Shown here: piece after piece, positions 4,425 to 24,448 of the stretch | Numbering within the stretch: position 1 is the stretch's first letter | Layout of the letters: every line of letters starts with the position of its first letter | Origin: an archaeon | GTDB taxonomy: Archaea; Nanobdellota; Nanobdellia; Woesearchaeales; UBA9642 | Length of the DNA stretch: 24,448 nucleotides | Direction of reading: 5' to 3' | Assembly (NCBI GenBank): GCA_043806035.1 | Contig: JAZDHK010000035.1 | Location: 1 to 24,448 of the forward strand | Translations under genes and position numbers: made by a program | The notes under the pieces: model-generated | Database searches by the model: none | Told to the model about the DNA's origin: nothing | Seen by the model: the letters and a program-made list of their open reading frames with translations, nothing else

Positions 4425-5177
4425 ATGAAGAAACTACTCCTTCCCTTGCTCGGACTTGCTGCATTGCTAGGCGGATGTGCATGCAAGGAACCACAGCAGC
4501 AAGTCAGAGAATACACCCCAGAAGACGTTAAACCCATTCCTATAGATAGCATGATGGCTGCATCTGTGCCTTTTGAAGCAATCCCCCTCGAGCAGCACAT
4601 CCTTCAGGAAGAAGAACGTGTCAAAACAATCGCTGAGGAAGATTATCTCCAAACAATGGAAGACATTTCCACACCACTCGAGGCGGCCATCTACTGTACG
4701 AAAGTCTTGCACTACGCCGCGGAGGAGAATTTTCCTTCAAACGAATACGGTTTACCAACATATTTTGTCGATTTCAAAACCATCCACGAGAAGAAAGAGG
4801 ATGTCTGCACCGGTGGAGCAACGGCTGCAGCTGCTTTGCTCTATGATAACGGCTTTCATCCCTACGTGCTTATCATGCGTGCAAAAAACAGCGACAAAAG
4901 CCACGTCGTATTCGTGTATAAGTCAACAGACGGATGGTACGGAAGCATAGGCATCAACGAGATTGACATCAGAACATTCGCAGACAGCCTCGGACAGATT
5001 GCACAAGATATCATCTGGCTAGGAGAGCAAACGTATCCAGCGAGCTATAAACTGTATGAGCTGAACGGCCCTGGCTTCATTGATGAGCACAAAAATCATG
5101 ATCCACGAATGGACTACAAAACACGAGACATTCTCGAGCACTACGCGCAAGCAAGACTCAGAGGAGTCCATCCGTAA
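4425..5177 (+). CDS. Putative lipoprotein with transglutaminase-like (Cys-His) domain
   Basis: MKKLLLPLLGLAALLGGC lipobox; DVCTGGATAAAALL helix followed by SHVVFVY...GWYGSIG. Confidence 0.65.
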   Translation: MKKLLLPLLGLAALLGGCACKEPQQQVREYTPEDVKPIPIDSMMAASVPFEAIPLEQHILQEEERVKTIAEEDYLQTMEDISTPLEAAIYCTKVLHYAAEENFPSNEYGLPTYFVDFKTIHEKKEDVCTGGATAAAALLYDNGFHPYVLIMRAKNSDKSHVVFVYKSTDGWYGSIGINEIDIRTFADSLGQIAQDIIWLGEQTYPASYKLYELNGPGFIDEHKNHDPRMDYKTRDILEHYAQARLRGVHP

Positions 5178-5210
5178 TGCCCAAAAAGTCTGAAGAAATA
5201 AGAAAAAAAT

Positions 5211-5567
5211 TTAGAATTCTACGTTGTACCCGTGTGCGTCAACGCTTTGGATGATGAACTCGTTGCCTTGATATTTTCCTGTCAGCGTCACACTTCCTGA
5301 GTCGCCTTTTGCGATCTCTGCACTGATGAGCGCTTGAGCATCTGCCGAATTCACCTTACCAATATAGCCACTGACGTGCGCGAGGACATCGCTGCTATCC
5401 GTCCTAATAACCGTCGCTACTGCACCACAACTGTGGCCGTATGCTTCGCTTACGCTTACCGGTCTGCCAGTCAAGGTTGTAGTTTGTGGCTGTTCGACTG
5501 AATTTCCTGAGCATCCCGCAAGGAGTGCTGCAGCAACTATTGCGCTTAATGTTATGATTGTTCTCAT
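5211..5567 (-). CDS. Putative lipoprotein, diverged paralog family member 4
   Basis: ATG at 5567 after AGGTGA; LLAGC lipobox; PVSVSE, ALISAEIAKGD, VTLTG, AHGYNVEF align with members 1-3. Confidence 0.8.
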   Translation of the reverse strand: MRTIITLSAIVAAALLAGCSGNSVEQPQTTTLTGRPVSVSEAYGHSCGAVATVIRTDSSDVLAHVSGYIGKVNSADAQALISAEIAKGDSGSVTLTGKYQGNEFIIQSVDAHGYNVEF

Positions 5568-5775
5568 GGTTTCACCTTTAGCACGGGTAGTGAACGAGAT
5601 ATTTAGGTGTTTCTTCTGCAAATAACGGAAACGCCTACCTGCCCGTGTTATTTTTAGGTATTTGCTCTTTAGAAAGCCTCAGATGCGAGTATTTATGAGA
5701 AGAAGCTGACATTTTGCAGCATTCCGAAAAATTTAAATACAAGAAACTACAATTAAATATCCTGATATACAAAAT

Positions 5776-5797
5776 AGTATATTAGTATAAATATACT
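5776..5797. promoter_or_regulatory. Palindromic operator-like site
   Basis: AGTATATT-N6-AATATACT perfect inverted repeat, 3 nt before the ATG at 5801; BRE/TATA-like GAAAAATTTAAATA at 5726-5739. Confidence 0.45.
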
Positions 5798-5800
5798 CGT

Positions 5801-5971
5801 ATGTCAGAAAAGCAGGCAAGAAGGCCAAGGAACATCATTGGCAGGAACGTGAAAACCATGTGCGACTTCAGGATGGGAGAATACTGTTTCAACCCGAAAA
5901 AAGTACGACCCGGCATAGTTGCCATGCCCTGCCATGAATGTTCCTGTGAAGCCCATCACGACAGCGAATAA
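5801..5971 (+). CDS. Cys/His-rich microprotein (56 aa), possibly zinc-binding
   Basis: Manual translation MSEKQARRPRNIIGRNVKTMCDFRMGEYCFNPKKVRPGIVAMPCHECSCEAHHDSE; below ORF-track cutoff; abrupt AT-rich to coding-like transition at the ATG. Confidence 0.6.
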   Translation: MSEKQARRPRNIIGRNVKTMCDFRMGEYCFNPKKVRPGIVAMPCHECSCEAHHDSE

Positions 5972-6023
5972 TATTCAGGAAACACCACATAAAGCATAAT
6001 AATGCTCTTCTCCAAAACAGCGC

Positions 6024-6326
6024 ATGGATGATGCGTTGCTGCTCAAGATCGCTCAAACGCTCACGCCTGAACTCGTACTGATCAAAGATCTTTCCACGAG
6101 AGAGGGAGAACTCGTCACCATTCGAGGAGAGATCATCCAGCAGAGGACGACAGAGAAAGCAACCTTTCTCACTATCCAAGACAGAACCGGGACGTGCGGT
6201 GCTGTAGCGTTCTCGGACGTGAGCAGTATGAAAGGAAACATCGTAGAGATTCGGGGAAAGGTCGATGACAAAGAACTTCTTATCGAGACCATAACCGTTC
6301 AGTCAGGTTTGCCAGGCACGTCATGA
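6024..6326 (+). CDS. OB-fold nucleic-acid-binding domain protein
   Basis: GELVTIRGEI...FLTIQDRTG...GNIVEIRGKV is a typical OB-fold pattern; overlaps the tdk 3' end by 28 nt. Confidence 0.75.
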   Translation: MDDALLLKIAQTLTPELVLIKDLSTREGELVTIRGEIIQQRTTEKATFLTIQDRTGTCGAVAFSDVSSMKGNIVEIRGKVDDKELLIETITVQSGLPGTS

Positions 6327-6916
6327 TGCAAGAAGCACCTCGCCTGATACTCATCTCCGCCCGTATCCACCTGAATGATGCTGTCATCATAGAGCACAGG
6401 CTTGCCATCCCTAAGCCTTTGCGTTCTTGTCGCCTTTCCTCCGCAGACGTTGCAGACGGCAGTTAATGTGTAGACTCTGTCTGCCATGAGCACTAAAGAT
6501 CCCATCTCTCCAAAAGGCTCTCCCCTGAAGTCCATGTCCAGACCGGCATAGATGACTGTTTTGCCTTGCCGCAGTAGCTTTTCTGTTATGGGAATGATTG
6601 CTCTGGGCAAGAACTGTACTTCGTCGCAGGCGACAAGGTCTATGGATTGTTCTTGCTTTGCTTCTTCCTGAGCCAGATGGTCGAGAATCTGGTACGGATT
6701 ATCTGTGTCAAAGCGGATGCAGTGCTGCTTGACGTCAGAATAGCGTGATTTTATCTCCCTATCTCTCGTATTCGTTATGGGATTGAAGAGCAGGAACGTC
6801 TTGTATGGCAGCTGCAGGATTTTCTCTCTCTGAACAAGCGAGTCTATTCTTTCCAGTAATTTTCTTGTCTTTCCTGAGTACATGCAGCCGGCGATGACTT
6901 CCAGCGTGCCAGGCAT
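6299..6916 (-). CDS. tdk: Thymidine kinase
   Basis: P-loop GCMYSGKT, DEVQF, AGLDMDFRGEPFG, Zn site CNVC...YQARC. Confidence 0.95.
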   Translation of the reverse strand: MPGTLEVIAGCMYSGKTRKLLERIDSLVQREKILQLPYKTFLLFNPITNTRDREIKSRYSDVKQHCIRFDTDNPYQILDHLAQEEAKQEQSIDLVACDEVQFLPRAIIPITEKLLRQGKTVIYAGLDMDFRGEPFGEMGSLVLMADRVYTLTAVCNVCGGKATRTQRLRDGKPVLYDDSIIQVDTGGDEYQARCFLHHDVPGKPD

Positions 6917-7099
6917 TGCGTGAGGATTCAAGTAACCACCCCAAACAGTGGCAGAAGGCGCTTTTACTTAAAGATTGCGATATGCAGCCAAGAGCTGTTG
7001 TAAATCTTCTTTCTTTTCCTCAGGCATTTTAACGTAGAATTCCTGCAGACGGCATTTTCGCAATGATGCGGGAGCTTTTCCTGATGCCTGTCGCCCTGT

Positions 7100-7762
7100 C
7101 TAGCCTTTTACCCAGATTTCCGTATCCCTGTAAATCTTGTAGAGCTTGGAGGGAATTTTTCCAAGTGTTGTGGCAATGTCGTCAATGCTTTCCTCGAACA
7201 ATTGCAATGACTGTCTAGGGTCCATGGGTTCTCGAGAGCCACGCAGAGTCAATAGTTTATTCTGGCAAAGGCCCGTATAGAATTCCTCAGACTGTCCTGT
7301 TGAGTAGAAGGGGTTACTGTTGAAAGAAACTTCATCAGCAAATTGTTTGATGACCGCATTCCACATGGTCATGTACATCTCATCAGACCATGTCAGTTGC
7401 AGGAAGTCGACAGGAGCTATGACGATGGGTGGGATGAGCTTTTTTTGGTCTTGCGGGGAGGGCACTTCAAGGGTTCTGAGCTCTTCCGCGAATGCCTTGC
7501 CATCCTTGATGTTCTCTTCCTTGACGAATCGCATGTATGCATCATTATCCGGCCTTCTGAAGTCTTCAAGGCTGGTTATGCCATGCTCTCGCATGTACTC
7601 ATAGAGTCGTTTTCCTGTAGTTATTGCTGAACTGGCGTAGATGACATGATTTTTTTCGGGGTCACCAATCGTTGACCTGTATGCGGATAGCGAGACCCTG
7701 ATGGCTTCGGTTATTTGTGCTTCTCGCTCCAGTGCGGCTCTGACGTTGAGGGGAATGTCCAT
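7100..7762 (-). CDS. Hypothetical protein, possibly nucleoside 2-deoxyribosyltransferase-like (DUF4406-like)
   Basis: IYASSAITTG, VIAP, W...YM..W, YSTGQSEE resemble that fold; TATA about 22 nt upstream of the ATG at 7762. Confidence 0.55.
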   Translation of the reverse strand: MDIPLNVRAALEREAQITEAIRVSLSAYRSTIGDPEKNHVIYASSAITTGKRLYEYMREHGITSLEDFRRPDNDAYMRFVKEENIKDGKAFAEELRTLEVPSPQDQKKLIPPIVIAPVDFLQLTWSDEMYMTMWNAVIKQFADEVSFNSNPFYSTGQSEEFYTGLCQNKLLTLRGSREPMDPRQSLQLFEESIDDIATTLGKIPSKLYKIYRDTEIWVKG

Positions 7763-7823
7763 ACTGCAAGAAACACAAACCCCTTTATATATTTTGTCAT
7801 TATTCAATAGTAACAAAAGAGAG

Positions 7824-8642
7824 TTAGGGTTTGAGGAAGGTGACGCTGGCTATGCTCGTTGCGATGCTCTTAGAATGCTTCTTGACAAAGCCCCAGCTCT
7901 TGTTGGGCACGTCGAAGACGGTGAGGAGATAGCAGATGACGACATATTCCGCAAAGACGGACGGGGAAGGAAGCTGCTTTGCATCAAAGAACTGGTCAGG
8001 CACGCTGTGATTGAAGACGGCAACACCGACGAACTCGGCAACGAACAGCGTAAGGAATCCGAACATGTCAAGATGCTTCAGTACAGGATTGCTCTTCTGC
8101 TGCTTCTTGACCAGAGCGGCAAAGTCTGTAGGAGCGTAGAAGTTGCCGTATTCCCGCAGGATGAGCGTTGCGTTCTCGTCGAGCAGCGCAAAATAGTCCT
8201 TTGTCGCGTTCTGGAACGTCCTCAAATCGATCTTTTTGTTGATGAATTGTTGTTCCCTATCCAGAAACTCCTTTTGGCGTGCCTGTACATTTGCGAAATA
8301 GGTCTCGAGCACGAAGAGATGCGCCTGCTGTCGTTTCCATTTTGTGTCGAGAGCGTTCAGCGCAGGAAGCATGCGTTTGTGTGCTTCAGCAATGATGGCG
8401 TACACGCCTCTCTCGCGATCGTTGATAATACGCAGCCCTTCATACGGATTGCCTTGCTCATATGCTGACGCCTTCCCAAATAGTCGCTTGAGCACGCCTG
8501 GCTTTTTTCCCGAAAGCACAGCATAGCAGGCCGCCCTTCTCGCATACAGCCCATCGTAGATGCGTATGGCCTGGCTCACTTTCTTTACAAGTTCAGAGAA
8601 ATCCTGCAGGAGACGAATCTGCTCTGCTGAGATGTCGGGCAT
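7824..8642 (-). CDS. Hypothetical helical protein with C-terminal hydrophobic segments
   Basis: Long ORF; TTTATAAA about 22 nt upstream of the ATG at 8642; two hydrophobic stretches near the C-terminus. Confidence 0.7.
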   Translation of the reverse strand: MPDISAEQIRLLQDFSELVKKVSQAIRIYDGLYARRAACYAVLSGKKPGVLKRLFGKASAYEQGNPYEGLRIINDRERGVYAIIAEAHKRMLPALNALDTKWKRQQAHLFVLETYFANVQARQKEFLDREQQFINKKIDLRTFQNATKDYFALLDENATLILREYGNFYAPTDFAALVKKQQKSNPVLKHLDMFGFLTLFVAEFVGVAVFNHSVPDQFFDAKQLPSPSVFAEYVVICYLLTVFDVPNKSWGFVKKHSKSIATSIASVTFLKP

Positions 8643-8725
8643 GCACGCATACTGCACAATACGATTTATAAACATTGCGTCAAATATTCATCATGTTTTT
8701 ATACGCTGCTGAATTCCCCTCACAC

Positions 8726-9997
8726 ATGGCAATCGACACGTTGGCATTCGTCATGGCAGGCGGCAGAGGAGAGCGCATGATGCCTCTTACTGAGAAGCGG
8801 GCAAAGCCTGCCGTTCCTTTCGGAGGCCATTTCAGGATTATTGACTTTGTCCTGAGCAATCTATACAATTCTGACGTTAGAGGCATTATCGTCGCAACGC
8901 AATGGAAGTCTGACTCATTGCACGTGCACTTGCGCAGAGGCTGGTATCCCCTTTTTGGCAATGGGCCGAGAGAGTTCATCCTCACAAAACCTGCCGTGCA
9001 GACGGGAAGCAACGAAGGCTGGTATGAAGGTACGGCTGATTCCATCATCAGACAAAAGAATCTCATCAAGGAATACTCGCTTAACGACGTCATGGTCTTC
9101 GGGGGAGATCACATCTACTTCATGGATGTGCAAAAATTTCATGACTTCCACGCAAAAACAGATGCTGCGGTCACCATCTGCGTCACGCGCATGCCCAGAA
9201 AAAAGGCGGCTGGAAAGTTCGGCGTTCTTGAAGTCGACGGTAACGGAAGAGTGGTTGGTTTTGAGGAAAAGCCGGACAATCCAAAATCCGTGCCTGGCGA
9301 TGAGAAGAACTGCCTCGTGAGCATGGGCAATTACTGCTTTGACACGAAAAACCTCCTCGCCGAGCTCGAGCACGATCAGGAGAAGGCATTGGCGCAGAGC
9401 AAGGAAGAATTCTTGAGTGACCCGAATAAATTCACGCTGCGTGACTTCGGTTACAATATCATTCCTTCCATGCTCGAATCAAAAGTGGTATACGCGTACG
9501 ACTTCTCACAGGAGCTCGTGCCCGGGCAGACAAAGCGCGAACGAGGATATTGGCGTGATGTAGGAAGCATAGATGACTATTTCAATGCAAATATGGAGAT
9601 ACGCAGTCCCGATCCCATCCTGAACCTGTACAATGCAGAATGGCCTCTTTACACCTACCTGCCAGCGCCCATCAATCCCGCGAAGCTCGTGCATGAGAAC
9701 ACGAGAGCCATAAACTCACTCGTGGGCATTAACATGATCCTCAGCGACTGCTACGTGCGAGACAGCGTGCTGGGCATGAATGGCAAGATTGAGGAAGGCG
9801 TGTCAATTGTTAAGTCTATCCTCATGGGACTGAATAAGATAGGACGAGGATCTCACATCAACAACACGATTATCGATAAGGACGTGAACATTCCTTCAAA
9901 CACCGTCATCGGCGAGGACAAGAAGTACGACAAAGAGCGAGGATTCACCGTCTCTCCCGGAGGGATAACCGTCGTGCCGAAAGGATACAAGTTCTGA
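8726..9997 (+). CDS. glgC: Glucose-1-phosphate adenylyltransferase (ADP-glucose pyrophosphorylase)
   Basis: MAGGRGERMMPLTEKRAKPAVPFGG, WYEGTAD, GDHIYFMD, FEEKP, SMGNY, DFG, YWRDVG, C-terminal beta-helix. Confidence 0.95.
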   Translation: MAIDTLAFVMAGGRGERMMPLTEKRAKPAVPFGGHFRIIDFVLSNLYNSDVRGIIVATQWKSDSLHVHLRRGWYPLFGNGPREFILTKPAVQTGSNEGWYEGTADSIIRQKNLIKEYSLNDVMVFGGDHIYFMDVQKFHDFHAKTDAAVTICVTRMPRKKAAGKFGVLEVDGNGRVVGFEEKPDNPKSVPGDEKNCLVSMGNYCFDTKNLLAELEHDQEKALAQSKEEFLSDPNKFTLRDFGYNIIPSMLESKVVYAYDFSQELVPGQTKRERGYWRDVGSIDDYFNANMEIRSPDPILNLYNAEWPLYTYLPAPINPAKLVHENTRAINSLVGINMILSDCYVRDSVLGMNGKIEEGVSIVKSILMGLNKIGRGSHINNTIIDKDVNIPSNTVIGEDKKYDKERGFTVSPGGITVVPKGYKF

Positions 9998-9999
9998 AG

Positions 10000-10013
10000 C
10001 AAAAATTTAAATG
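10000..10013 (+). promoter_or_regulatory. Archaeal BRE/TATA for the SPT-like gene (likely leaderless)
   Basis: CAAAAATTTAAATG ends 22 nt before the GTG start at 10036, the same spacing seen at many genes here. Confidence 0.55.
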
Positions 10014-10035
10014 TACATTCCCATTCCTTTCGTTC

Positions 10036-11229
10036 GTGGGTATCTTCGACAAGTGTTCTGACAGCAAGATCGTGAACAGTGAAAAAGTCATTCGTGCATT
10101 GGACATTTATCCATTCTTCATTCCCTTGCAATCAGAAACAGACAGCACGGTCATGATAGACGGAAAGAAAAAAATCATGCTCGGATCGAACAACTATGCA
10201 GGTTTGACGAACGATCCTCGTGTAAAGGAAGCGGCAATACGCGCCATCGAGAAGTATGGAAGCGGCTGTACTGGGTCTCGGTTGATGAACGGCACGCTGG
10301 ACATCCATATTGAGTTGGAGGAAAAGCTCGCAAAGGCCATGCAGAAAGAGGCAGCCCTAGTTTACAGCACTGGCTTCCAGACGAATCTAGGAACTATCTC
10401 CACACTCGTCGGCAGGGACGACTGCGTCATTATTGACAGGGCAGACCATGCCAGTATCGTAGATGCGTGTAGGCTCTCTTTCGGAGATGTGCTCAGATTC
10501 AAGCATAATGACATGGACGATCTCGAACGAATGCTCACCTCCGGCAAAAAATACAAAGGCAGGCTCGTTGTTGTCGATGGCATTTTCAGCATGGAGGGAG
10601 ACATTGCAAAACTCCCCGAGATAGTCTCGTTATGCAGGCAGTATGATGTGCAGCTCATGGTCGATGACGCGCACAGCATAGGCGTGCTGGGAAAAAACGG
10701 CATGGGCACGGCAGAGCATTTCAACCTCGTTGATAACGTCGATATCATCATGGGGACGTTCAGCAAGTCCTTTGCGAGCATCGGCGGCTTCATCGCAGCC
10801 AAGAAACACGTTGTTGATTACGTCAAGCACACCTCTCGTGCATTTCTTTTCAGTGCAAGCATACCTCCCGCGGCAGCGGCGACAGCATTAACGACGCTGG
10901 ATATCATCCAGAACGAACCGGAACGCAGAACTCGCCTCTGGGAAATAACGCAGTACATGAAAAAAGCGTTCACGGACATGGGATATGATACAGGCATGAG
11001 TGCAAGCCCCATCATCCCCGTCATCATCGGCGAGGACATCGCGACGTTCACGTTCTGGAAAGCAATATACGAAAAAGGCGTATTCACGAATCCCGTCATC
11101 AGTCCCGCCGTGCCTGAAGGAACGGCTCGTTTGAGAACGAGCTACATGGCGACGCACAAGGATGACGAATTGAACAGAGCCTTGGAAATATTCTACAAAA
11201 CAGGAAAGGAGTTCGGTATCGTTCGATAA
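10036..11229 (+). CDS. PLP-dependent alpha-oxoamine synthase, serine palmitoyltransferase-like
   Basis: GSNNYAGL, GSRLMNGT, YSTGFQTNLG, DHASIVD, DGIFSMEGD, DDAH, PLP lysine in GTFSKS, FLFSAS. Confidence 0.85.
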   Translation: MGIFDKCSDSKIVNSEKVIRALDIYPFFIPLQSETDSTVMIDGKKKIMLGSNNYAGLTNDPRVKEAAIRAIEKYGSGCTGSRLMNGTLDIHIELEEKLAKAMQKEAALVYSTGFQTNLGTISTLVGRDDCVIIDRADHASIVDACRLSFGDVLRFKHNDMDDLERMLTSGKKYKGRLVVVDGIFSMEGDIAKLPEIVSLCRQYDVQLMVDDAHSIGVLGKNGMGTAEHFNLVDNVDIIMGTFSKSFASIGGFIAAKKHVVDYVKHTSRAFLFSASIPPAAAATALTTLDIIQNEPERRTRLWEITQYMKKAFTDMGYDTGMSASPIIPVIIGEDIATFTFWKAIYEKGVFTNPVISPAVPEGTARLRTSYMATHKDDELNRALEIFYKTGKEFGIVR

Positions 11230-11244
11230 GATTCTGCTTATCGA
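11223..11244 (+). terminator. Hairpin overlapping the SPT-like stop codon
   Basis: TCGATAAG-N6-CTTATCGA perfect 8-bp stem; function inferred only. Confidence 0.35.
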
Positions 11245-11262
11245 GGCATCATGAGTGTGTGC

Positions 11263-11285
11263 AGTTTGTTTCAGAACATGCGTTG
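11263..11285. repeat. Direct repeat of tRNA-Gly 3' end plus downstream flank (att-like)
   Basis: AGTTTGTTTCAGAACATGCGTTG versus AGTTTGTTTCAGAACCTGCGTCG at 13138-13160, 21/23 identical. Confidence 0.75.
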
Positions 11286-11374
11286 GACATAGAGCTTTCC
11301 AGAAAACACCATCTTCGAAAATCTTCCGGTTTTTTCTTGATAACGCTTTAATTGAATCGCAGCATATTTAAACT

Positions 11375-11698
11375 ATGAACTGCAGGGATACTTTGGTTGA
11401 GAAATTAGCCAAGTATAGTGACGTCGTCATAACACAGCATGCGCTCGAACAGGCAGTGTTTAGGAATATCAGCCTGGAAGAGGTCAGAAGAAACATCCTG
11501 CATCCGGAAAGATTAGTGTTTGCAGGTAAACAAGAAGCAGAACATCCTGACGAGGAAAAGTATGACTGTTATTTCGAGTACAGCAAAACGAGATGCCACC
11601 GGTACGTGCTGGTCATCAATGCCACCTGTATCGTGTGTACCATTATCAAAATCAACAAGAGATGGCAAAAGAAAGTTGAGAAATATGCGAAGCATTAA
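11375..11698 (+). CDS. DUF4258-like (RelE/BrnT-fold) putative toxin
   Basis: ITQHALEQAVFRNISLEEV...YDCYF...IVCTI pattern; overlaps the downstream partner gene. Confidence 0.7.
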   Translation: MNCRDTLVEKLAKYSDVVITQHALEQAVFRNISLEEVRRNILHPERLVFAGKQEAEHPDEEKYDCYFEYSKTRCHRYVLVINATCIVCTIIKINKRWQKKVEKYAKH

Positions 11699-12038
11699 CT
11701 TCAGCTATGATACTGACCAGGACGACCTCCTATTGCATTATGCATCCTGCCAATCCAAAGGCAGTGTTGAGATCGGAGATCTCATCATCGATTATGACTC
11801 AAAAAATGAGTTTGTTGGTTTGCAGCTCATGCATGCATCAGCATTCATCAAGGCCTGCTGCAATGAGAACGAAATCGTCATTAAAACCGTGCTGAGCACG
11901 TTGCAATCTGCACGGCTCGAAACGACGAAGAGAAATAACCTGCTCATCATCAAACTTGTTCTTGTCGGCAAAAACAAAGAAATATCTTCCGTGCTGACCT
12001 TGCCAAGCATCACGCAGGAGAATCCTGCATTAGGTTAA
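11685..12038 (+). CDS. DUF2283-like putative antitoxin
   Basis: ATG at 11685; FSYDTDQDDLLL...GDLIIDYDSKNEFVGLQLMHAS matches the DUF2283 pattern. Confidence 0.8.
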   Translation: MRSINFSYDTDQDDLLLHYASCQSKGSVEIGDLIIDYDSKNEFVGLQLMHASAFIKACCNENEIVIKTVLSTLQSARLETTKRNNLLIIKLVLVGKNKEISSVLTLPSITQENPALG

Positions 12039-12069
12039 GCGCGTTGAGCGAGCACACAACTGCTCTCAC

Positions 12070-12207
12070 CTAACCCTTTATGGTGATGCCTACCTTCTTG
12101 TGGCAGCGTTCGTGTTCCTTATCGTCCTTCTCGTCGTACTCCTTGTGCTTTCTATGCCACGCATCATGCTCTTTACGGGTAATGACCATGTTCTTCTTTT
12201 TGTCCAT
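12070..12207 (-). CDS. His-rich microprotein (45 aa)
   Basis: Manual translation MDKKKNMVITRKEHDAWHRKHKEYDEKDDKEHERCHKKVGITIKG; TTTATAAG 22 nt upstream. Confidence 0.7.
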   Translation of the reverse strand: MDKKKNMVITRKEHDAWHRKHKEYDEKDDKEHERCHKKVGITIKG

Positions 12208-12266
12208 GGCTGTTCACATGTTTGTAGAGCTTATAAATCTTATGCACGGCAACTACTGCGTCTCTC

Positions 12267-12662
12267 TCAATGCCTTTTTCTGCTGTGCCGTTGAGATCGT
12301 TTGCGTTTCTTGAACCAGCCAATGAGAAACAGAATTCCTATAAGAAGTGCTGGGCCAGCAATAAATAGTGACCAGGAAATCATGTACCACGCAAATGCTT
12401 TGTCCAGGACTAGCATCGTCATATACAATAATCCTGACAGAATGAAAGCAATGCCCCCCACAATTTCATGTTTCCATGAGATGAGCAGAACGATCAATAA
12501 CATAAATGCGGGGATGTTGTGCATGAACAAACCGAGGACAGTTCCCCAGAAGCCCAGCTGCATGTCAAAAATATCCAAGGAGAAGAACATCAAGAACAAA
12601 ATGAAGGCTATCGACAAGATTCTCGGCGTCCAGTAAATGAATGTGTTGCCCTTTTTGTCCAT
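12267..12662 (-). CDS. Four-TM hypothetical membrane protein
   Basis: WTPRILSIAFILFLMFFSLDIF...LFMHNIP; four hydrophobic helices and a basic tail; TATA about 23 nt upstream. Confidence 0.85.
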   Translation of the reverse strand: MDKKGNTFIYWTPRILSIAFILFLMFFSLDIFDMQLGFWGTVLGLFMHNIPAFMLLIVLLISWKHEIVGGIAFILSGLLYMTMLVLDKAFAWYMISWSLFIAGPALLIGILFLIGWFKKRKRSQRHSRKRH

Positions 12663-12788
12663 GCTGCGTCATTAGAGAGTACGTATATTTAAAATACGTT
12701 ATTTTACCTATGCAATTCCAGAATGCGTCGAACGAAACGCCCATTACACGTTAGATTTTCAACGGACAACGGTCAAGAAAGAGCTCCA

Positions 12789-13106
12789 TTATTTTTTTGG
12801 AGCATAGCCCTTTGCCTTGTACACATACTCCTTGCCAGGAACGCGTAAATACGTCAGTTCAAGAGAAGCAGTCACGACATCATTTGGTTCTGGCTTCTGC
12901 CCGATAAAGTCAGTAAGCTTGCTCGGCATCATCTGAAATCCCACCTCGAGCACATCTCCAACCCACAACGTCCTTGCCACAACATCGCTCAAATCAACAG
13001 AATACTCTCCGTACGCGCAGCCCAGCACTATCTTTCTCCTGACGCCATCGCCTTTCTCGATCCGCTCAACAGAAGCCAATAAATGTTCAATCTTGTTTTT
13101 CGACAT
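12789..13106 (-). CDS. Hypothetical beta-rich protein
   Basis: ORF 12789-13124; the ATG at 13106 fits TTTATATA (13138-13131) spacing better. Confidence 0.6.
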   Translation of the reverse strand: MSKNKIEHLLASVERIEKGDGVRRKIVLGCAYGEYSVDLSDVVARTLWVGDVLEVGFQMMPSKLTDFIGQKPEPNDVVTASLELTYLRVPGKEYVYKAKGYAPKK

Positions 13107-13153
13107 CCCAAGATGAGGCATCATAGTAAGTATATAAAGTTTGTTTCAGAACC

Positions 13154-13249
13154 TGCGTCGAGCGGGAATCGAACCCGCGACACCGCCTCTTTGCACACCA
13201 CTCGCGTGGCACGTGGCAAGGCGGAATTATACCATTTAACTATCGACGC
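13154..13249 (-). tRNA. tRNA-Gly(GCC) with a 25-nt intron at 37/38 (intron 13189-13213); CCA not encoded
   Basis: Acceptor GCGTCGA/TCGACGC+A, anticodon stem CCGCC/GGCGG, loop TTGCCA^A, T-arm GCGGG-TTCGATT-CCCGC; bulge-helix-bulge formed by TTGC/GCAA with CAC and AGA bulges. Confidence 0.95.
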
Positions 13250-13322
13250 ATAACGTTCGAGATGAACGTTTTATTTATATAGATTACGAAATTATTTAAA
13301 CAGCCTCACCCGATAGAAAACT

Positions 13323-14240
13323 ATGACAAACAAAGCCAAAATCGTTTTCATCGTCATGCTCGTCCTGCTCTGCAGCTGCACTCCGCAACAGAGTCTGCAT
13401 TCCCGGCAAGAAGCCATTCCAGAAACAGCAGTGAAGATAACGCCCGATATGGACAGCAACCCACCGCAATCATTTTCTGATGAGTATGCTGACCCAGTGC
13501 CAATTCCAGTCATCGACACGGCAGGAGCAGAAGATTCTGCATTCATCATGCCTGACGGGAAAACGCTGTACTTTTTCTTCACTCCCGATGTCAATGTTCC
13601 TGTGGAACGACAACTCTTTGACGGCAGCACCGGCATATACGTGGCAAGAAAAACGAACGGTTGGAGCGAACCAGAGCGAGTACTGTTGCAGGACAAAGGA
13701 AAGCTCTCGCTTGACGGCTGTGCCTTCATCCAAGACAAGAGTATGTGGTTCTGCTCCGCACGTGAAGGATATACGGGCTTGCACTGGTTCACTACAGTAC
13801 TCAAAGATAACAAATGGCAGAACTGGAAGAACACTGATTTCCCCGCATCATACGAGGTTGGCGAGTTACACATGACTGCTGACGAGCTTTACTTCCACTC
13901 AAGCAGAGCCGGAGGGAAAGGAGGATTGGACATTTGGGTGTCAAAAAAAGTGAATGGAGCATGGTCTGAGCCAGAGAATGTTGCCAACGTCAACTCTGCA
14001 GGCGACGAGGGCTGGCCCTGCATCAGCCCCGATGGGAAAGAATTATGGTTTTCAAAAGAATACAGTGTCTGGAGGTCGAAGAGCATAAACAGCATCTGGG
14101 CAGCACCAGAACGCATGTTCGGGCCGCTTGTAGGCGAACCATCACTTGACGCCGCAGGGAATGTGTACTTCACCCACCACTTCTACAGGAACAACACTAT
14201 GCTCGAGGCGGACATTTACATTGCAGAAAAGAAACACTAG
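13323..14240 (+). CDS. PD40/TolB-like beta-propeller lipoprotein
   Basis: LLCSC lipobox; repeats PDGKTLYFF, DELYFHSSRAGGKGGLDIWVS, NSAGDEGWPCISPDGKELWF. Confidence 0.85.
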   Translation: MTNKAKIVFIVMLVLLCSCTPQQSLHSRQEAIPETAVKITPDMDSNPPQSFSDEYADPVPIPVIDTAGAEDSAFIMPDGKTLYFFFTPDVNVPVERQLFDGSTGIYVARKTNGWSEPERVLLQDKGKLSLDGCAFIQDKSMWFCSAREGYTGLHWFTTVLKDNKWQNWKNTDFPASYEVGELHMTADELYFHSSRAGGKGGLDIWVSKKVNGAWSEPENVANVNSAGDEGWPCISPDGKELWFSKEYSVWRSKSINSIWAAPERMFGPLVGEPSLDAAGNVYFTHHFYRNNTMLEADIYIAEKKH

Positions 14241-15561: not shown

Positions 15562-17142
15562 CTATTTCAGGAGAGAATGCCCCGTCATGTCTTTCGGCTT
15601 CTTGATCTTCAGCAGGCTCAGGATGGTTGGTGCGATATCGCGCAGGCCGCCTTTCTGCACGAGCTTGACGTCCTGCCTGAGCACGATGAACGGCACAGGG
15701 CTGGTGGTGTGCGCGGTCTGCGGCCTGCCGAACGTATCTTCCTTGAGTTCCGCATTGCCATGGTCTGAGGTGATGATGAGCGTCCCTCCCGCTTTCTCGA
15801 CGGCGTCTGCGGCCTTGCCCAGGACAGCATCTACTGCCTCGACAGCGTGCACCGTTGCCTTTATTTTTCCTGAATGCCCGACCATGTCGCAATTCGCATA
15901 ATTCAAGATAATGACGTCATATTTTTTCTTCTTGAGCTGGTCGATGAGTTTTTTCGTGATTGCCGGCGCTTCCATCTGCGGCTTCTTGTCGTACGTGGCT
16001 ACGGTCTTGTCAGAATGGATAAGGATACGGTCCTCTCCAGGGAATGCGCCTTCCCTGCCGCCGTTGAAGAAATACGTGAGGTGGGCATACTTTTCTGTTT
16101 CGGTAAGTTTCAGATGCTTGAGTTTGCGTTTGCTGAGCACTTCAGATAAGGTATTAGAGACTGGCTGGTGGGGGAATGCAACGGGCAGCTTAAAATTCTT
16201 GTCGTAGTCCGTCATGCAGACGAAGTGCACGTGCAGGTTCTGTTTTCTCTTGAACTGGCCGAAATGGCCTTGTGTGAATGCGCGTGCAAGCTCTCGTGCT
16301 CTGTCGCTCCTGAAGTTGAAGAAGATGATTGCGTCATGCTGTTTGATTGTGCCGTTCTGGTTCAGTAGGGTTGGCTTGACGAATTCGTCAGTGAAGTTCT
16401 GGCGGTAGGCGATGTTGACTGCTTCCATGGGATCCCTGATGAGTATGCCTTTGCCGTTCACCATGAGGTCGTACGCTTTGTGTTCTCTGTTCCACCGATT
16501 GTCTCTATCCATGGCGTAATATCTGCCGATGACGCTTGCCACGCTGCCCGTGTTTGCTTTGATTATGTGTTTTTCGAGCATGCGCAAGTATTTCTTTGCA
16601 GAGAAAGGATCGACATCCCTCCCATCGAGGATGGCGTGGATGAACACGTTCTGGATGAAGTGGTGGTTGGCCAAGTCGAGCAGGGCAAGCACATGGTTGA
16701 TGTGGCTGTGCACCCCGCCATCACTCAGGAGACCGATGAAGTGCAGGCGTGAATTGTACTTTTTGACGTGACGTATGGCATCCAGCAGTGCGGGGTTCTT
16801 GAAAAACGTGCCGTCGCTGATGGCCCTGTTGATCCTGAAGAAGTCCTGCTCAGTCACCCTTCCCGAGCCGATGGTCATGTGCCCAAGCTCACTGTTCCCG
16901 ATGACACCGTCAGGCAGGCCGACTGCCGTGCCGCTCGCGTCAAGTACTGCATGCGGGAAGGCCATGAACTTGTCCATGTTTGGCTTTTTTGCCATGCTGA
17001 TGGCATTGCCCTGTGTCTCTTCTCTCAATCCATACCCGTCGACGATTGCGAGCACTATGGGTTTGCCGTGCTTGGGGATGTGGCGTGTAGCAGCACGTTT
17101 CTTGCCCAGCTTATGTAGTGTCTTTTTCTTAGGCTTTGCCAT
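15562..17142 (-). CDS. gpmI: 2,3-bisphosphoglycerate-independent phosphoglycerate mutase (bacterial type)
   Basis: IVDGYG, GNSELGH, SDGGVHSH, GRYYAMDRD, NFRSDR, ETEKYAH, DMVGHSG, SDHGN, TAHT. Confidence 0.95.
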   Translation of the reverse strand: MAKPKKKTLHKLGKKRAATRHIPKHGKPIVLAIVDGYGLREETQGNAISMAKKPNMDKFMAFPHAVLDASGTAVGLPDGVIGNSELGHMTIGSGRVTEQDFFRINRAISDGTFFKNPALLDAIRHVKKYNSRLHFIGLLSDGGVHSHINHVLALLDLANHHFIQNVFIHAILDGRDVDPFSAKKYLRMLEKHIIKANTGSVASVIGRYYAMDRDNRWNREHKAYDLMVNGKGILIRDPMEAVNIAYRQNFTDEFVKPTLLNQNGTIKQHDAIIFFNFRSDRARELARAFTQGHFGQFKRKQNLHVHFVCMTDYDKNFKLPVAFPHQPVSNTLSEVLSKRKLKHLKLTETEKYAHLTYFFNGGREGAFPGEDRILIHSDKTVATYDKKPQMEAPAITKKLIDQLKKKKYDVIILNYANCDMVGHSGKIKATVHAVEAVDAVLGKAADAVEKAGGTLIITSDHGNAELKEDTFGRPQTAHTTSPVPFIVLRQDVKLVQKGGLRDIAPTILSLLKIKKPKDMTGHSLLK

Positions 17143-17244: not shown

Positions 17245-18117
17245 TTAAGCATAGTCTGCAGCAACAGTCGCAGGCACGGCACGTTTACGTTCTGTATCCC
17301 GCACAAACCCCCTGATATAGATGCGTTCCGTACCCAGCATGGCCTTGAGCGGTCCGAGGATGTCATTCGGAGTTCTTTTTGTGCCAAAGCTCAGGAAATC
17401 AGCTGCGAAATAGCCATGCTCATTGTAGGAGTGGTAATGCCCGAAGCCATCGCTGAACATGGACATACCCGTAATGCCGCCTTTCTCGTAGAGCTGTCGC
17501 CCATTGCCGTCGTGCAGCGGTGACGCATCGAACTGGTAGTGCTTCTCGAAGATGAGCTGTTGCGTCTCTCCCTTGAGGTAGATGTCGTGCATGATCCGAT
17601 TCAATCGTTCAGGATCCTCGAGCAGGAGATGATCTATGCCGAAGCCGTCGACTATGAGATGATGGTAGGGCTGGTCGAGGCGCGTGTATGCTGCGTCTTT
17701 GAGTATGCGCTCCTCATTGCCTCGGACGATGATGCCCAAAGGGTTATGGTTGCTGATGACGCAGTGCTCGATGCCTTTGCCGAATGCGTCATGCACGATG
17801 CTCCTGTCCTTGGCCACGATGCCTGGATCTGACTCGTTGCCACAGGTGAAGATGTCGAGTGTCGCCTTTCCTGTCAGAAGATCGAGCGTGAGATACTGCA
17901 GTGATTCTTTGATGAGGGCGGCGGAGTGGATTCTGCCGTCGTGCTGCATAACGTAAGGTCCTAGGAGAACGTTTGCTTTGATGCGTGCAAGGATATTGGA
18001 AGAGACAGCCCTGACAGTATCGAGATAATTTGGCGCAAAAAGAGAAAGATCTACGTGAGAAACGTCAATGATGGCTTGGCGCCCATCTGCAGAGTATGTT
18101 TGAAATGGTGTGTTCAT
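17245..18117 (-). CDS. speD: Tandem two-domain S-adenosylmethionine decarboxylase-family proenzyme
   Basis: Domain 1 LIKE71-S72...LDIFTC92G; domain 2 HLIVD...GGITG...HSYNEHGYFAAD. Confidence 0.75.
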   Translation of the reverse strand: MNTPFQTYSADGRQAIIDVSHVDLSLFAPNYLDTVRAVSSNILARIKANVLLGPYVMQHDGRIHSAALIKESLQYLTLDLLTGKATLDIFTCGNESDPGIVAKDRSIVHDAFGKGIEHCVISNHNPLGIIVRGNEERILKDAAYTRLDQPYHHLIVDGFGIDHLLLEDPERLNRIMHDIYLKGETQQLIFEKHYQFDASPLHDGNGRQLYEKGGITGMSMFSDGFGHYHSYNEHGYFAADFLSFGTKRTPNDILGPLKAMLGTERIYIRGFVRDTERKRAVPATVAADYA

Positions 18118-23336: not shown

Positions 23337-24448
23337 ATGAACGAGGAAAAACTCAGGAAGCTCCAGGAGCTCAAGAAAAAAGGCATACCCTCCTACCCCT
23401 ATAGGTATGCGGTCACGGCAACATCGAAGGAAATTCTCGACAAGTACGCCCATATAGTCGTTGCGGAGCACACGCAGGACATCCACAGCATCGCCGGCAG
23501 GATCGTGCAGATGCGGGAGATGGGCAAGGCAAGCTTCATGCACCTCCAGGACAGCGTGGGAAAAATACAGGTGTATCTGCGGGCTGACCAGCTCGCCAAT
23601 TACGACCTGCTCAAGCTCCTCGACCTCGGTGACATCATCGGTGTTGAAGGAGAAGTGTTCAGGACGAAGATGGGAGAAATAACCATCAATGCACGGACAG
23701 TAGTCCTGCTCACCAAAAGCCTGGGAGACCTGCCAGAAAAATACCACGGGCTCAAGGACATTGAGTTGAGGTATAGGAACCGGCATCTCGACCTCATCGC
23801 CAATCCAGAAATCAGGGAGACGTTCAGAAAACGAGCAGCCATCATCAGCACCATGCGCAAAGTCCTCGACGAAAAAGGATTTTTGGAAGTAGAAACTCCC
23901 GTCATCCAGCCCATCTACGGCGGGGGGGCGGCAAAACCGTTCACCACGTTCATCAACGATCTCAAGCAAAATGCATACTTGCGGATCAGCGACGAGCTCT
24001 ACCTGAAACGGCTCATCGTCGGAGGAATAGATAGGGTGTACGAGATCAGCAAGGACTTCAGGAATGAGAGCATCGACAGGAGTCATAATCCCGAATTCAC
24101 GATGATGGAAGCCTACCAGGCATACGCTGACCTGCATGACATGATGGACTTGTGCGAGGAAATCTTCGAACAGGCATGCCTTGCCGTGAACGGCACGCTC
24201 GACGTCACGTATGGCGAACACAAGATCAACTTCAAGCGACCCTGGAAACGAGTACGGATGATCGACTGCATCAAGGAGCATGCAGGCATCGACGTCACAA
24301 GCATGGACGAGGAGGCGCTGCTCTCGTTCATTAGGACACAGCACATAAAATTTGATAGGGAAGAGAAGAAAGGCTACATGGTTGCTGCCATCTTCGAGCA
24401 CTTCTGCGAGGAAAAGCTCATCCAGCCGACATTCATCATCGACCATCC
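23337..24448 (+). CDS. lysS: Lysine--tRNA ligase class II, 5' part (runs off window end)
   Basis: Manual translation: AGRIVQMREMGKASF, FLEVETP, YGGGAAKPF, LRISDELYLKRLIVGG, DFRNESIDRSHNPEFT. Missing from the ORF track, which shows only the antisense ORF. Confidence 0.95.
   Translation, partial: MNEEKLRKLQELKKKGIPSYPYRYAVTATSKEILDKYAHIVVAEHTQDIHSIAGRIVQMREMGKASFMHLQDSVGKIQVYLRADQLANYDLLKLLDLGDIIGVEGEVFRTKMGEITINARTVVLLTKSLGDLPEKYHGLKDIELRYRNRHLDLIANPEIRETFRKRAAIISTMRKVLDEKGFLEVETPVIQPIYGGGAAKPFTTFINDLKQNAYLRISDELYLKRLIVGGIDRVYEISKDFRNESIDRSHNPEFTMMEAYQAYADLHDMMDLCEEIFEQACLAVNGTLDVTYGEHKINFKRPWKRVRMIDCIKEHAGIDVTSMDEEALLSFIRTQHIKFDREEKKGYMVAAIFEHFCEEKLIQPTFIIDH

Follow-up and report, generated by a model that had tools for sequence, protein, structure and literature searches.

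A serine palmitoyltransferase-clade alpha-oxoamine synthase gene in a Woesearchaeales archaeon

In this study, we analyzed a stretch of 24,448 nucleotides (hereafter the window, contig JAZDHK010000035.1 of the Woesearchaeales assembly GCA_043806035.1) and a gene within it, at 10036..11229, whose product resembles serine palmitoyltransferase (SPT, or Spt). Our explanation, which we hold with moderate confidence, is that the gene encodes a soluble, bacterial-type, pyridoxal 5'-phosphate (PLP)-dependent alpha-oxoamine synthase (AOS) of the Spt clade, that a DPANN-type archaeal lineage took it over from bacteria, and that it has since become an ordinary part of the genome, with an archaeal promoter, a composition like that of the host and purifying selection acting on it. 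Judged from the sequence, long-chain-base synthesis is the likely function, and a complete sphingolipid pathway would be no more than a possibility. Sphingolipids count as lipids of eukaryotes and bacteria, and their synthesis has never been demonstrated in archaea; the kind of enzyme is known, and the archaeal host domain is new.

A single open reading frame (ORF) occupies these coordinates, and translation could begin no earlier in this frame than at the GTG at 10036. The features of the gene are as follows.

10036..11229, + strand: gene of the SPT-clade alpha-oxoamine synthase (397 aa, from the ORF and its translation); it starts with GTG, and the coordinates take in the stop codon
10447..10674, + strand: catalytic and PLP-contact stretch with H138 (10447-10449), S185, D210 (10663-10665), A212 and H213 (10672-10674), the same as in Sphingobacterium multivorum SPT by alignment
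10753..10788, + strand: PLP-binding motif GTFSKSFASIGG, residues 240-251; the Schiff-base lysine K244 is codon 10765-10767
11128..11136, + strand: R365-L-R367; R367 is invariant in 72/72 aligned rows, R365 is Kbl/BioF-like and rare in the SPT clade

All six motifs that an earlier note on this DNA had named are present in the translation, namely YPFF (within IYPFFIPL), GSRLMNGT, YSTGFQTNLG, GTFSKSFASIGG, SRAFLFSAS and EPERRTRLW. The rule by which that note had told SPT from Kbl and BioF holds in our small reference set (T-F-S-K-S in seven SPT, T-L-[GS]-K-A in three Kbl and T-[FL]-[GS]-K-[GA] in two BioF), and G-T-F-S-K-S is described as the characteristic PLP-binding motif of SPT (PMC10196870). 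The protein matches Pfam Aminotran_1_2 (200 bits, residues 44-384) and the NCBIfam model NF047600 for CFB-type serine palmitoyltransferase (547.4 bits, residues 15-393 on model positions 14-392 of 395). Because the latter match runs from end to end, the protein is collinear with the SPT model, which bears out the collinearity with Bacteroides SPT that the earlier note had stated.

Ranking by hidden Markov model placed SPT-CFB first (547 bits), followed by TIGR01825 (428), SPT-BetaP (415), Kbl (401), BioF (393) and ALAS (258). No naming cut-off of any family was passed, including those of Kbl (401 against 460 for NF005394) and BioF (393 against 426.45 for TIGR00858). When PDB sequences were ranked, the best solved relative was Sphingobacterium multivorum SPT (438.6 bits, E-value = 1.8e-130), followed by Thermus BioF/Kbl (299 bits), Sphingomonas-type SPTs (279-290) and Kbl (243-268). 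Lower scores were obtained for cysteate acyltransferases (232-238), the human, plant and yeast SPT catalytic subunits (171-210), BioF (147-202), ALAS (171-194) and CqsA (118). The predicted fold is thus fixed through a sequence match (439 bits) to a solved structure. Compared with S. multivorum SPT (PDB 3A2B and the 8GUH series), the window protein has the same length, aligns from end to end (query 5-392), carries the same GTFSKS motif and is identical at about half of its residues (196/385, a hand count of the alignment); its identity to Parabacteroides and Bacteroides SPT is 53% and 49%, respectively (tblastn).

The phylogenetic analysis started from 138 rows: 99 proteins encoded in the loci of relatives, 28 AOS proteins of the archaeal order, 10 named references taken from E. 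coli and plasmid records, and the window protein itself. Four sequences had been set aside beforehand, namely a fusion of 923 aa, two ORFs of 599 and 293 aa and a fragment of 253 aa. The careful maximum-likelihood tree contains 72 of these rows, with 21 GNAT-like rows and 45 close duplicates left out. A 49-row SPT clade (ultrafast bootstrap 100, SH-aLRT 96) includes the window protein and its archaeal sister from another Woesearchaeales genome (G084), the two forming a pair with support 100/100. The remaining rows of this clade are 39 bacterial proteins, one protein from Heimdallarchaeum and every one of the 7 references that exceed an SPT cut-off. The SPT references were named by passing NCBIfam SPT cut-offs, not by assay in this work: five from Bacteroidota score 648-700 bits on NF047600, and those from Roseomonas and Rahnella score 613 bits on NF047599. 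All three Kbl (E. coli, Bacillus and Staphylococcus) and both BioF references (E. coli and Alicyclobacillus) fall outside the clade. In an approximately unbiased (AU) test, forcing the window protein and the G084 protein into the Kbl group cost 120.5 log-likelihood units (p-AU = 7e-5); the Kbl group for this test was chosen after the tree had been seen, and union with Kbl was the outcome that the earlier note had set down as refuting its reading. Compared with the Bacteroidota SPTs, the window protein scores lower (547 bits versus 648-700) and branches outside the Bacteroidota subclade, in a basal polytomy. A branch of 21 rows (length 7.59) that the quick tree had placed inside the SPT clade was rejected as AOS; these are non-homologous GNAT-like proteins, which were in the BLAST cluster because AOS-GNAT fusion proteins had pulled them in.

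The catalytic set is complete (K244 in GTFSKS, H138, D210, H213 and the C-terminal R367). Twelve of 15 active-site residues are identical to those of S. multivorum SPT (N52, G80, S81, H138, S185, D210, A212, H213, T241, S243, K244 and F272), and the other three are conservative changes (F83L, L84M and M271L). The pair G80-S81 agrees with SPT and BioF, Kbl having S/A-V there. Nine columns separate the 7 SPT from the 5 Kbl/BioF references, and the window protein has the SPT residue in 7 of them. The assignment of the earlier note, SPT-like and not Kbl/BioF-like, is therefore reached alike by HMM ranking, PDB ranking, tree, AU test and residues. Its proposal for an AOS phylogeny is borne out as far as clustering with SPT and away from Kbl and BioF is concerned; HemA, CqsA and the cysteate acyltransferases were compared by PDB score and not placed in the tree.

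Other members of the fold family share part of these features. Kbl (E. coli 1FC4, NF005394) has the same catalytic His/Asp/His/Lys/Arg set and an R-x-R before the C-terminal helix, but it scores 264 bits versus 439 for SPT, the window protein lies outside the Kbl clade, their union is rejected and there is no tdh partner. BioF (E. coli 1BS0, TIGR00858) shares G80-S81 and R-L-R, but it scores 200 bits in the PDB ranking, the window protein lies outside its clade and bioA, bioB, bioD and bioW were not found in the genome. The cysteate fatty acyltransferases (PDB 28EH and 7U7H) are, like SPT, long-chain-base-forming AOS enzymes; they score 232-238 bits versus 439 for SPT, and their substrate pocket is described as remodelled relative to canonical SPTs (PMC13692747), whereas the SPT pocket residues are conserved in the window protein.

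To place the gene in its host, we considered the contig and the genome. The window is the entire contig C35 of a 1.50-Mb genome in 42 contigs (G000; completeness 93.7%, contamination 2.0%), of which contig C15 carries a full archaeal small-subunit rRNA (1386 bits, RF01959) and the start of an archaeal large-subunit rRNA. Two features of the window bear on the host and on expression.

13154-13249, - strand: tRNA-Gly(GCC) with a 25-nt intron after position 37 (Rfam, 57 bits; no CCA end encoded)
10006..10012, + strand: TTTAAAT, a TATA-like box that starts 30 nt ahead of the GTG, within the 38 nt separating the gene from its upstream neighbour

A tRNA intron of that size and place is an archaeal or eukaryotic trait; the tRNA was missed by ARAGORN, which reports no tRNA in the window. 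The tetranucleotide profile of C35 correlates at 0.979 with the rest of the genome (contig range 0.76-0.99; rRNA contig 0.944). The class II lysyl-tRNA synthetase (LysRS) of the window has orthologues with 46-55% identity in 17 of the 18 other genomes of the family, and the closest homologue of the SPT-like protein carries the NCBI label 'Nanoarchaeota archaeon' as a metagenome-assembled genome (MAG). We conclude that the gene sits in an archaeal chromosome. The DPANN-type archaeal host that the earlier note had suspected agrees with the archaeal rRNA, with the intron-bearing tRNA on the contig and with the failure to find GGGPS, CarS, G1P dehydrogenase, ketoacyl synthase and acyl carrier protein (ACP) in the genome.

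Among 1147 upstream regions, TATA-like hexamers peak genome-wide at -30 to -27 (137 and 129 hits in two 2-nt bins, versus 6-43 in other bins), and 261 of the 1147 genes have such a hexamer starting between -36 and -24. The predicted archaeal-type promoter that had been assigned to the gene is upheld, since TTTAAAT at -30 occupies the modal position of the genome. Its distance from the GTG implies a leaderless or near-leaderless transcript, as predicted from sequence, and the sharpness of the peak before predicted starts suggests that leaderless mRNAs are common in this organism. A search of sequencing runs turned up four DNA runs, one of them containing half of the sampled words, and no RNA run. 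The GC content at third codon positions (GC3) of the gene is 0.62, compared with a genome mean of 0.58 +/- 0.08 (1157 long ORFs).

The distribution of the gene in archaea is patchy. In 401 genomes sampled from the order, AOS matches at E-value <= 1e-30 were found in 37, and the single close orthologue was that of G084, which belongs to another family (73% identity); none of the 7 same-family genomes in this sample has a match at that threshold. In a second sample of 401 high-quality genomes from the phylum, matches at E-value <= 1e-90 were confined to G000, G142 and G181, with those of G142 and G181 lying outside the SPT clade, and none of 11 same-family genomes matched. The AOS genes of the order fall in at least five separate places of the tree (Kbl-like, BioF-like, an order-specific clade, a group of G181 and genus g140, and the SPT pair). 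The SPT pair is surrounded by bacterial rows in a clade that excludes the Kbl/BioF outgroups, which makes a bacterium-to-archaeon transfer the economical reading, in line with the horizontal acquisition that the earlier note had proposed. The nearest rows by path length are from Zixibacteria and Cytophagia; the base of the clade, a polytomy, points to no single donor lineage. Between the window gene and that of G084, amino-acid identity is 73%, third-position identity is 37.5% and dN is 0.20, with dS saturated (dN/dS is not computable). Since protein identity has been kept despite saturated synonymous sites, both copies have long been maintained by purifying selection.

Other AOS genes in archaea were observed along the way. 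The AOS of G181 is 43% identical to the window protein and lies outside the SPT clade; its locus (C20:8000-27900, 4878-13631) holds a GNAT gene matching the bCerS-like profile described below (198 bits), a restriction-modification methylase, the AOS, an AMP-binding ligase and an alpha/beta hydrolase. The AOS of genus g140 (G214 and G142) is 45-47% identical to the window protein, likewise outside the SPT clade, and is located between scpB and dUTPase/gyrA genes; a strong CerR-like reductase gene lies elsewhere in these genomes (G214:C57:4065-5018 and G142:C14:3819-4772; 293 and 277 bits). The order-specific AOS clade (15 genomes from several families) has a long branch with support 100, falls near E. 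coli-type Kbl in the quick tree and carries D-E-I-R in place of the R-x-R of Kbl/BioF. Two complete Ca. Heimdallarchaeum genomes have an AOS (7971-9194 of the locus) that is sister to the whole SPT clade (100/96) and counted in its 49 rows; the genes on its two sides encode an Arf-family GTPase and an ornithine/aspartate carbamoyltransferase. The PDB ranking leaves the type of this AOS ambiguous (S. multivorum SPT 316 bits, Thermus BioF/Kbl 286, Kbl 264), and eukaryotic SPT is not closer (176-179). A KdsR-like gene in Heimdallarchaeum was not counted as linked, being 7.5 kb from the AOS and at the edge of the locus.

The bacterial relatives give the gene a biochemical context. The protein search scored 8000 of 8000 candidates, and the 120 matches listed were the protein itself, one protein at 73% identity and 118 at 60-65%; organism labels among the listed matches were few (Zixibacteria, WOR-1 and Planctomycetota). 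Gene contexts were taken from the best 80 of 163 confirmed relatives' loci, with 962 ORFs clustered. A CerR-like extended short-chain dehydrogenase/reductase (SDR) of the epimerase family is located <=500 bp from the AOS in 28 of these best 80 loci; this family has no match to a threonine dehydrogenase model, its best NCBIfam matches are HpnA-like and OleD-type 3-oxo reductases, and the SDR encoded in the ligase-SDR-ACP-SPT operon of Rahnella reaches 192 bits against its profile. CerR is described as the NDUFA9-like reductase of the bacterial ceramide pathway (PMC11087976). A GNAT-like (YghO-family) gene of ~380 aa follows the AOS directly downstream on the same strand (<=360 bp) in 20 of the best 80 loci, lies 6.5 kb away in one further locus and is fused to the AOS in locus L063. 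The same adjacency of AOS and GNAT-like gene occurs on plasmid records of Rubrobacter, Aureispira and Streptomyces, and the homologue in Pseudomonas veronii, annotated YghO, is divergent from a ligase-SDR-ACP-AOS operon. We infer that this GNAT-like family is bCerS-like; the bCerS-like and CerR-like labels are drawn from gene neighbourhood and the descriptions in two papers, not from assayed sequences.

Both neighbours are present in 12 of the best 80 loci and at least one in 36, which is a lower bound because many contigs end nearby. The loci with both include those of the nearest bacterial relatives (2 of 3 Zixibacteria-type loci, L008 and L013, as well as Cytophagia and Zhuqueibacterota), so that the nearest bacterial relatives, at 57-64% identity, are flanked by CerR-like and bCerS-like ceramide genes. 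A KdsR-like SDR was found in three of the best 80 loci, and in six Bacteroidales-type loci a YegS-type lipid kinase adjoins instead; the window gene, unlike these, has no lipid-kinase neighbour. Neither tdh nor bio genes were found among the recurrent neighbour families scanned. The triplets of CerR-like, Spt-like and bCerS-like genes in the bacterial relatives resemble the Spt-bCerS-CerR pathway described for Caulobacter (PMC11087976), and a bCerS-like gene is also present in the sister archaeon G084 (386 bits, G084:C64:36285-37427). The bCerS-like profile was derived from the genes that follow Spt-like genes in bacteria; it has matches in 32 of the 401 order genomes, 16 of them at 237 bits or more, and only 8 of the 32 also have an AOS match.

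Within G000 itself, the inventory of lipid genes is short. A Pfam search of the genome found no PcrB/GGGPS, CarS, Fe-ADH_2 (the G1P dehydrogenase family), ketoacyl synthase or PP-binding domain, and one UbiA prenyltransferase; given 93.7% completeness, the organism appears, on its predicted genes, to be unable to make archaeal ether lipids or fatty acids. With two ACPs and a Bacteroidales lipid kinase as queries, no match was obtained at E-value <= 1e-3, and at the same threshold none was obtained to Tdh (E. coli and Bacillus; Zn-type), BioA and BioB (E. coli) or BioD and BioW (Alicyclobacillus). The statement of the earlier note that bio and tdh genes are lacking is thus true of the window, in which Pfam and NCBIfam scans found none, and, with the queries used, of the whole genome. 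One FadD-like AMP-binding ligase is encoded on contig C27 (4032-5744); among NCBIfam models it comes closest to fatty-acid-CoA ligases, at 256 and 251 bits, both short of the cut-offs, and it shares 33% identity with the ligase that adjoins the G181 AOS. It was not found in G084, G096 or G364, and the neighbours of this ligase and of the bCerS-like gene of G084 include no lipid-related Pfam family.

From these parts, we infer both substrates, the product and its use or fate as follows. PLP would be bound to K244 through an internal aldimine, and K244 would be displaced by L-serine or by a different small amino acid, with H138 anchoring the carboxylate and with G80-S81 and N52 framing the side-chain pocket. 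A long-chain acyl-CoA would then bind, and decarboxylative Claisen condensation would give a 3-keto long-chain base of the 3-ketodihydrosphingosine (3-KDS) type; the enzyme is probably dimeric, as in its family. With neither an ACP nor a fatty-acid synthase found in the genome, acyl-CoA would serve as the acyl donor, and the FadD-like ligase on C27 could make it from fatty acids scavenged from other cells. Bacteroidota SPT takes acyl-CoA as its donor, and the lack of an ACP in the archaeal genome would fit such a likeness. In G084, the bCerS-like protein could N-acylate the long-chain base; bacterial bCerS is proposed to act on 3-KDS before reduction (PMC11087976). Because no bCerS-like gene and no clear CerR/KdsR-type reductase were found in G000, its product may stop at the long-chain base or go to unrelated enzymes.

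The genes around the window gene were also identified, as listed below.

559-1323: MutY-like glycosylase, a bacterial-type housekeeping gene
8675-9997: GlgC-like glucose-1-phosphate adenylyltransferase, directly upstream, bacterial-type (447 bits, just below cut-off)
11375-12038, + strand: two overlapping ORFs directly downstream, with weak DUF4258 and DUF2283 matches
15562-17142: cofactor-independent phosphoglycerate mutase, bacterial type (TIGR01307, 675 bits, over cut-off)
23337-24446: class II LysRS, a bacterial-type housekeeping gene

The pairing of DUF4258 and DUF2283 is one we take to be typical of toxin-antitoxin-like modules, and the orthologue in G084 is located near an integrase and an AbiEii toxin gene. 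The AOS is the only gene common to the window and the loci of G084, G214, G142, G271 and G181. The GlgC-like gene is itself rare (1 of the 18 other genomes of the family, at 41% identity), so no 'empty site' could be defined. In a 290-aa ORF (17245-18117, - strand), an AdoMet decarboxylase domain covers residues 153-273 only, and the N-terminal half has no family match.

Several results weigh against the preferred explanation. The NF047600 equivalog cut-off of 640 is not reached at 547 bits; the protein is not a member of this narrow equivalog, and NF047600 is its closest family. The same shortfall is seen in 18 of the 28 SPT-clade proteins scanned, and to our knowledge none of the sub-cut-off clade members used here has been assayed. 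R365, which gives an R-x-R as in Kbl/BioF, is found in only 4 of the 49 SPT-clade rows (the window protein, G084, one Poribacteria and one Aminicenantes), the other 45 having L, M or I; the Bacteroidota SPTs, for instance, have L at this position, and the window protein further differs from them by F83L, L84M, M271L and its archaeal host. The amino-acid substrate is not readable from the sequence, and S. multivorum SPT is reported to accept Ala, Gly and homoserine weakly (PMC10196870). There is no lipid gene beside the SPT-like gene in the window, and no synteny with the sister archaeon G084. No bCerS-like gene was found in G000 (best score 11 bits, against self-scores of at least 439), nor was G000 matched in the order-wide profile scan. 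Five extended SDRs of G000 score 113-135 bits on the CerR-like profile, compared with at least 220 for members of the family and 192 for the Rahnella SDR, and the four scanned with NCBIfam, a set that comprises all but the one on contig C31, read as sugar-nucleotide dehydratases/epimerases in glycan operons. The KdsR-like matches are weak, being FabG-like SDRs only (30% identity, 86 bits). The downstream ceramide enzymes, either bCerS with CerR or KDSR, thus do not co-occur with the Spt-like gene in G000, and these absences are provisional because the genome is 93.7% complete in 42 contigs.

In this respect G000 differs from the Spt-bCerS-CerR systems, having no bCerS-like and no convincing CerR-like gene anywhere. 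It resembles instead, by description, those members of the Spt-like clade B of Ding et al. (e.g., Cloacimonadota) whose Spt-like gene stands alone; linkage to partners is described there as not required, some phyla with Spt-like proteins having no linked partners (PMC11334938). Of the horizontally acquired route to sphingoid or amino lipids that the earlier note had envisaged, the horizontal acquisition is supported; the route itself would have the one FadD-like ligase to draw on, no bCerS-like gene and no convincing CerR- or KdsR-like reductase were found for it, and the scavenged acyl-CoA and the product are presumptive. Among the partners it had named, the acyl-CoA ligase was found (the FadD-like one), and an ACP, a bCerS-like protein and a clear CerR/KdsR-like reductase were not.

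A long-chain AOS whose product is not a sphingolipid precursor would fit these missing genes. Such an enzyme might use another amino acid (Ala or Gly, giving 1-deoxy bases, or another amine donor), or yield an amino-ketone or amino-alcohol that stays free, is not incorporated into a ceramide and affects the bacterial or archaeal partner cell, be it as a signal or as a membrane-active compound. The departure of R365 from 45 of the 49 clade members points the same way, as do the description of SPTs as somewhat promiscuous (PMC10196870) and the hypothesis of Ding et al. (2024, PMC11334938) that Spt takes other amino acids. The residues framing the serine side chain are nevertheless all conserved (N52, G80, S81, S243 and the PLP phosphate contacts), and the bCerS-like acyltransferase retained by the sister archaeon agrees with a long-chain base being N-acylated in its lineage. 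We consider this alternative unlikely, though worth keeping in view.

A short-chain enzyme of the Kbl/BioF type, i.e., glycine C-acetyltransferase, 8-amino-7-oxononanoate synthase or a broad-specificity enzyme like Thermus BioF/Kbl, is in our judgment quite improbable. The score below the SPT cut-off, the sizeable TIGR01825 (428), Kbl (401) and BioF (393) scores, the second rank of Thermus BioF/Kbl among solved relatives (299 bits) and R365-x-R367 could all be read in its favor, and other genomes of the order do carry Kbl-like and BioF-like AOS genes. However, the protein is placed in the SPT clade (100/96) with union with Kbl rejected (AU P-value = 7e-5), it also stays below the Kbl (401 versus 460) and BioF (393 versus 426) cut-offs, and it has G80-S81 where Kbl has S/A-V. 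Candidate partners are lacking too: Tdh, BioA, BioB, BioD and BioW had no match in the genome at E-value <= 1e-3, the extended SDRs of the genome resemble sugar-nucleotide enzymes (SDR-type threonine dehydrogenase had no model of its own), and the recurrent neighbour families scanned in the best 80 loci include no tdh or bio gene.

That the gene is a recent functionless passenger, or the contig a mis-binned bacterial fragment, is very improbable: the variable region with its DUF4258/DUF2283 pair just downstream, the integrase and AbiEii toxin gene near the G084 orthologue, the same-family genomes without AOS (0/7 at E-value <= 1e-30 and 0/11 at E-value <= 1e-90) and the many bacterial-type genes of the window would suit it, but C35 carries a tRNA-Gly with a 25-nt intron at 37/38, its tetranucleotide correlation with the rest of the genome is 0.979, orthologues of its LysRS (46-55%) occur in 17 of 18 other family genomes, and the gene has a TATA box at the modal position, typical GC3, an intact frame, all catalytic residues and 73% protein identity against saturated synonymous sites.

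The preferred explanation, a bacterial-type Spt-clade AOS now resident in a DPANN-type archaeon, extends what has been reported for this family. Ding et al. (2024, PMC11334938) describe Spt-like proteins in 38 bacterial phyla of Black Sea MAGs, raising the number of sphingolipid-capable phyla to 40 including those known before; no archaeal MAG with an Spt-like protein was found in that survey, and Nanoarchaeota are characterized as lipid scavengers with very limited lipid biosynthetic capacity. No report of an archaeal Spt was found for DPANN, Asgard or Woesearchae in the literature searched, which was a limited full-text collection, with Woesearchae covered by title and abstract.

Parts of a pathway are scattered as a mosaic across the order: Spt-like with FadD-like genes in G000, Spt-like with bCerS-like in G084, AOS with ligase, GNAT and hydrolase in G181, AOS with CerR-like in g140, and bCerS-like genes in 32 of 401 genomes. 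We put forward, tentatively, that some DPANN archaea unable to make isoprenoid ether lipids or fatty acids might, with genes of bacterial origin, turn serine and scavenged fatty acids into membrane lipids of the sphingoid-base or ceramide type. If the enzyme is an ordinary orphan, it would merely be another horizontal gene transfer in a DPANN genome. An Spt-clade gene that is intact, under selection and provided with a promoter, in a DPANN archaeon apparently auxotrophic for lipids, is a concrete, clonable test case, and it raises the question of whether such archaea remodel scavenged fatty acids into amino lipids of their own or merely borrow the lipids of their hosts. The finding also matters for studies that take sphingolipids in sediments as biomarkers of bacteria, and for the extent to which bacterial lipid genes have crossed the 'lipid divide'. 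If the proposal is true, sphingolipid synthesis would be seen in Archaea for the first time, and with it a minimal route to a bilayer lipid that dispenses with glycerol.

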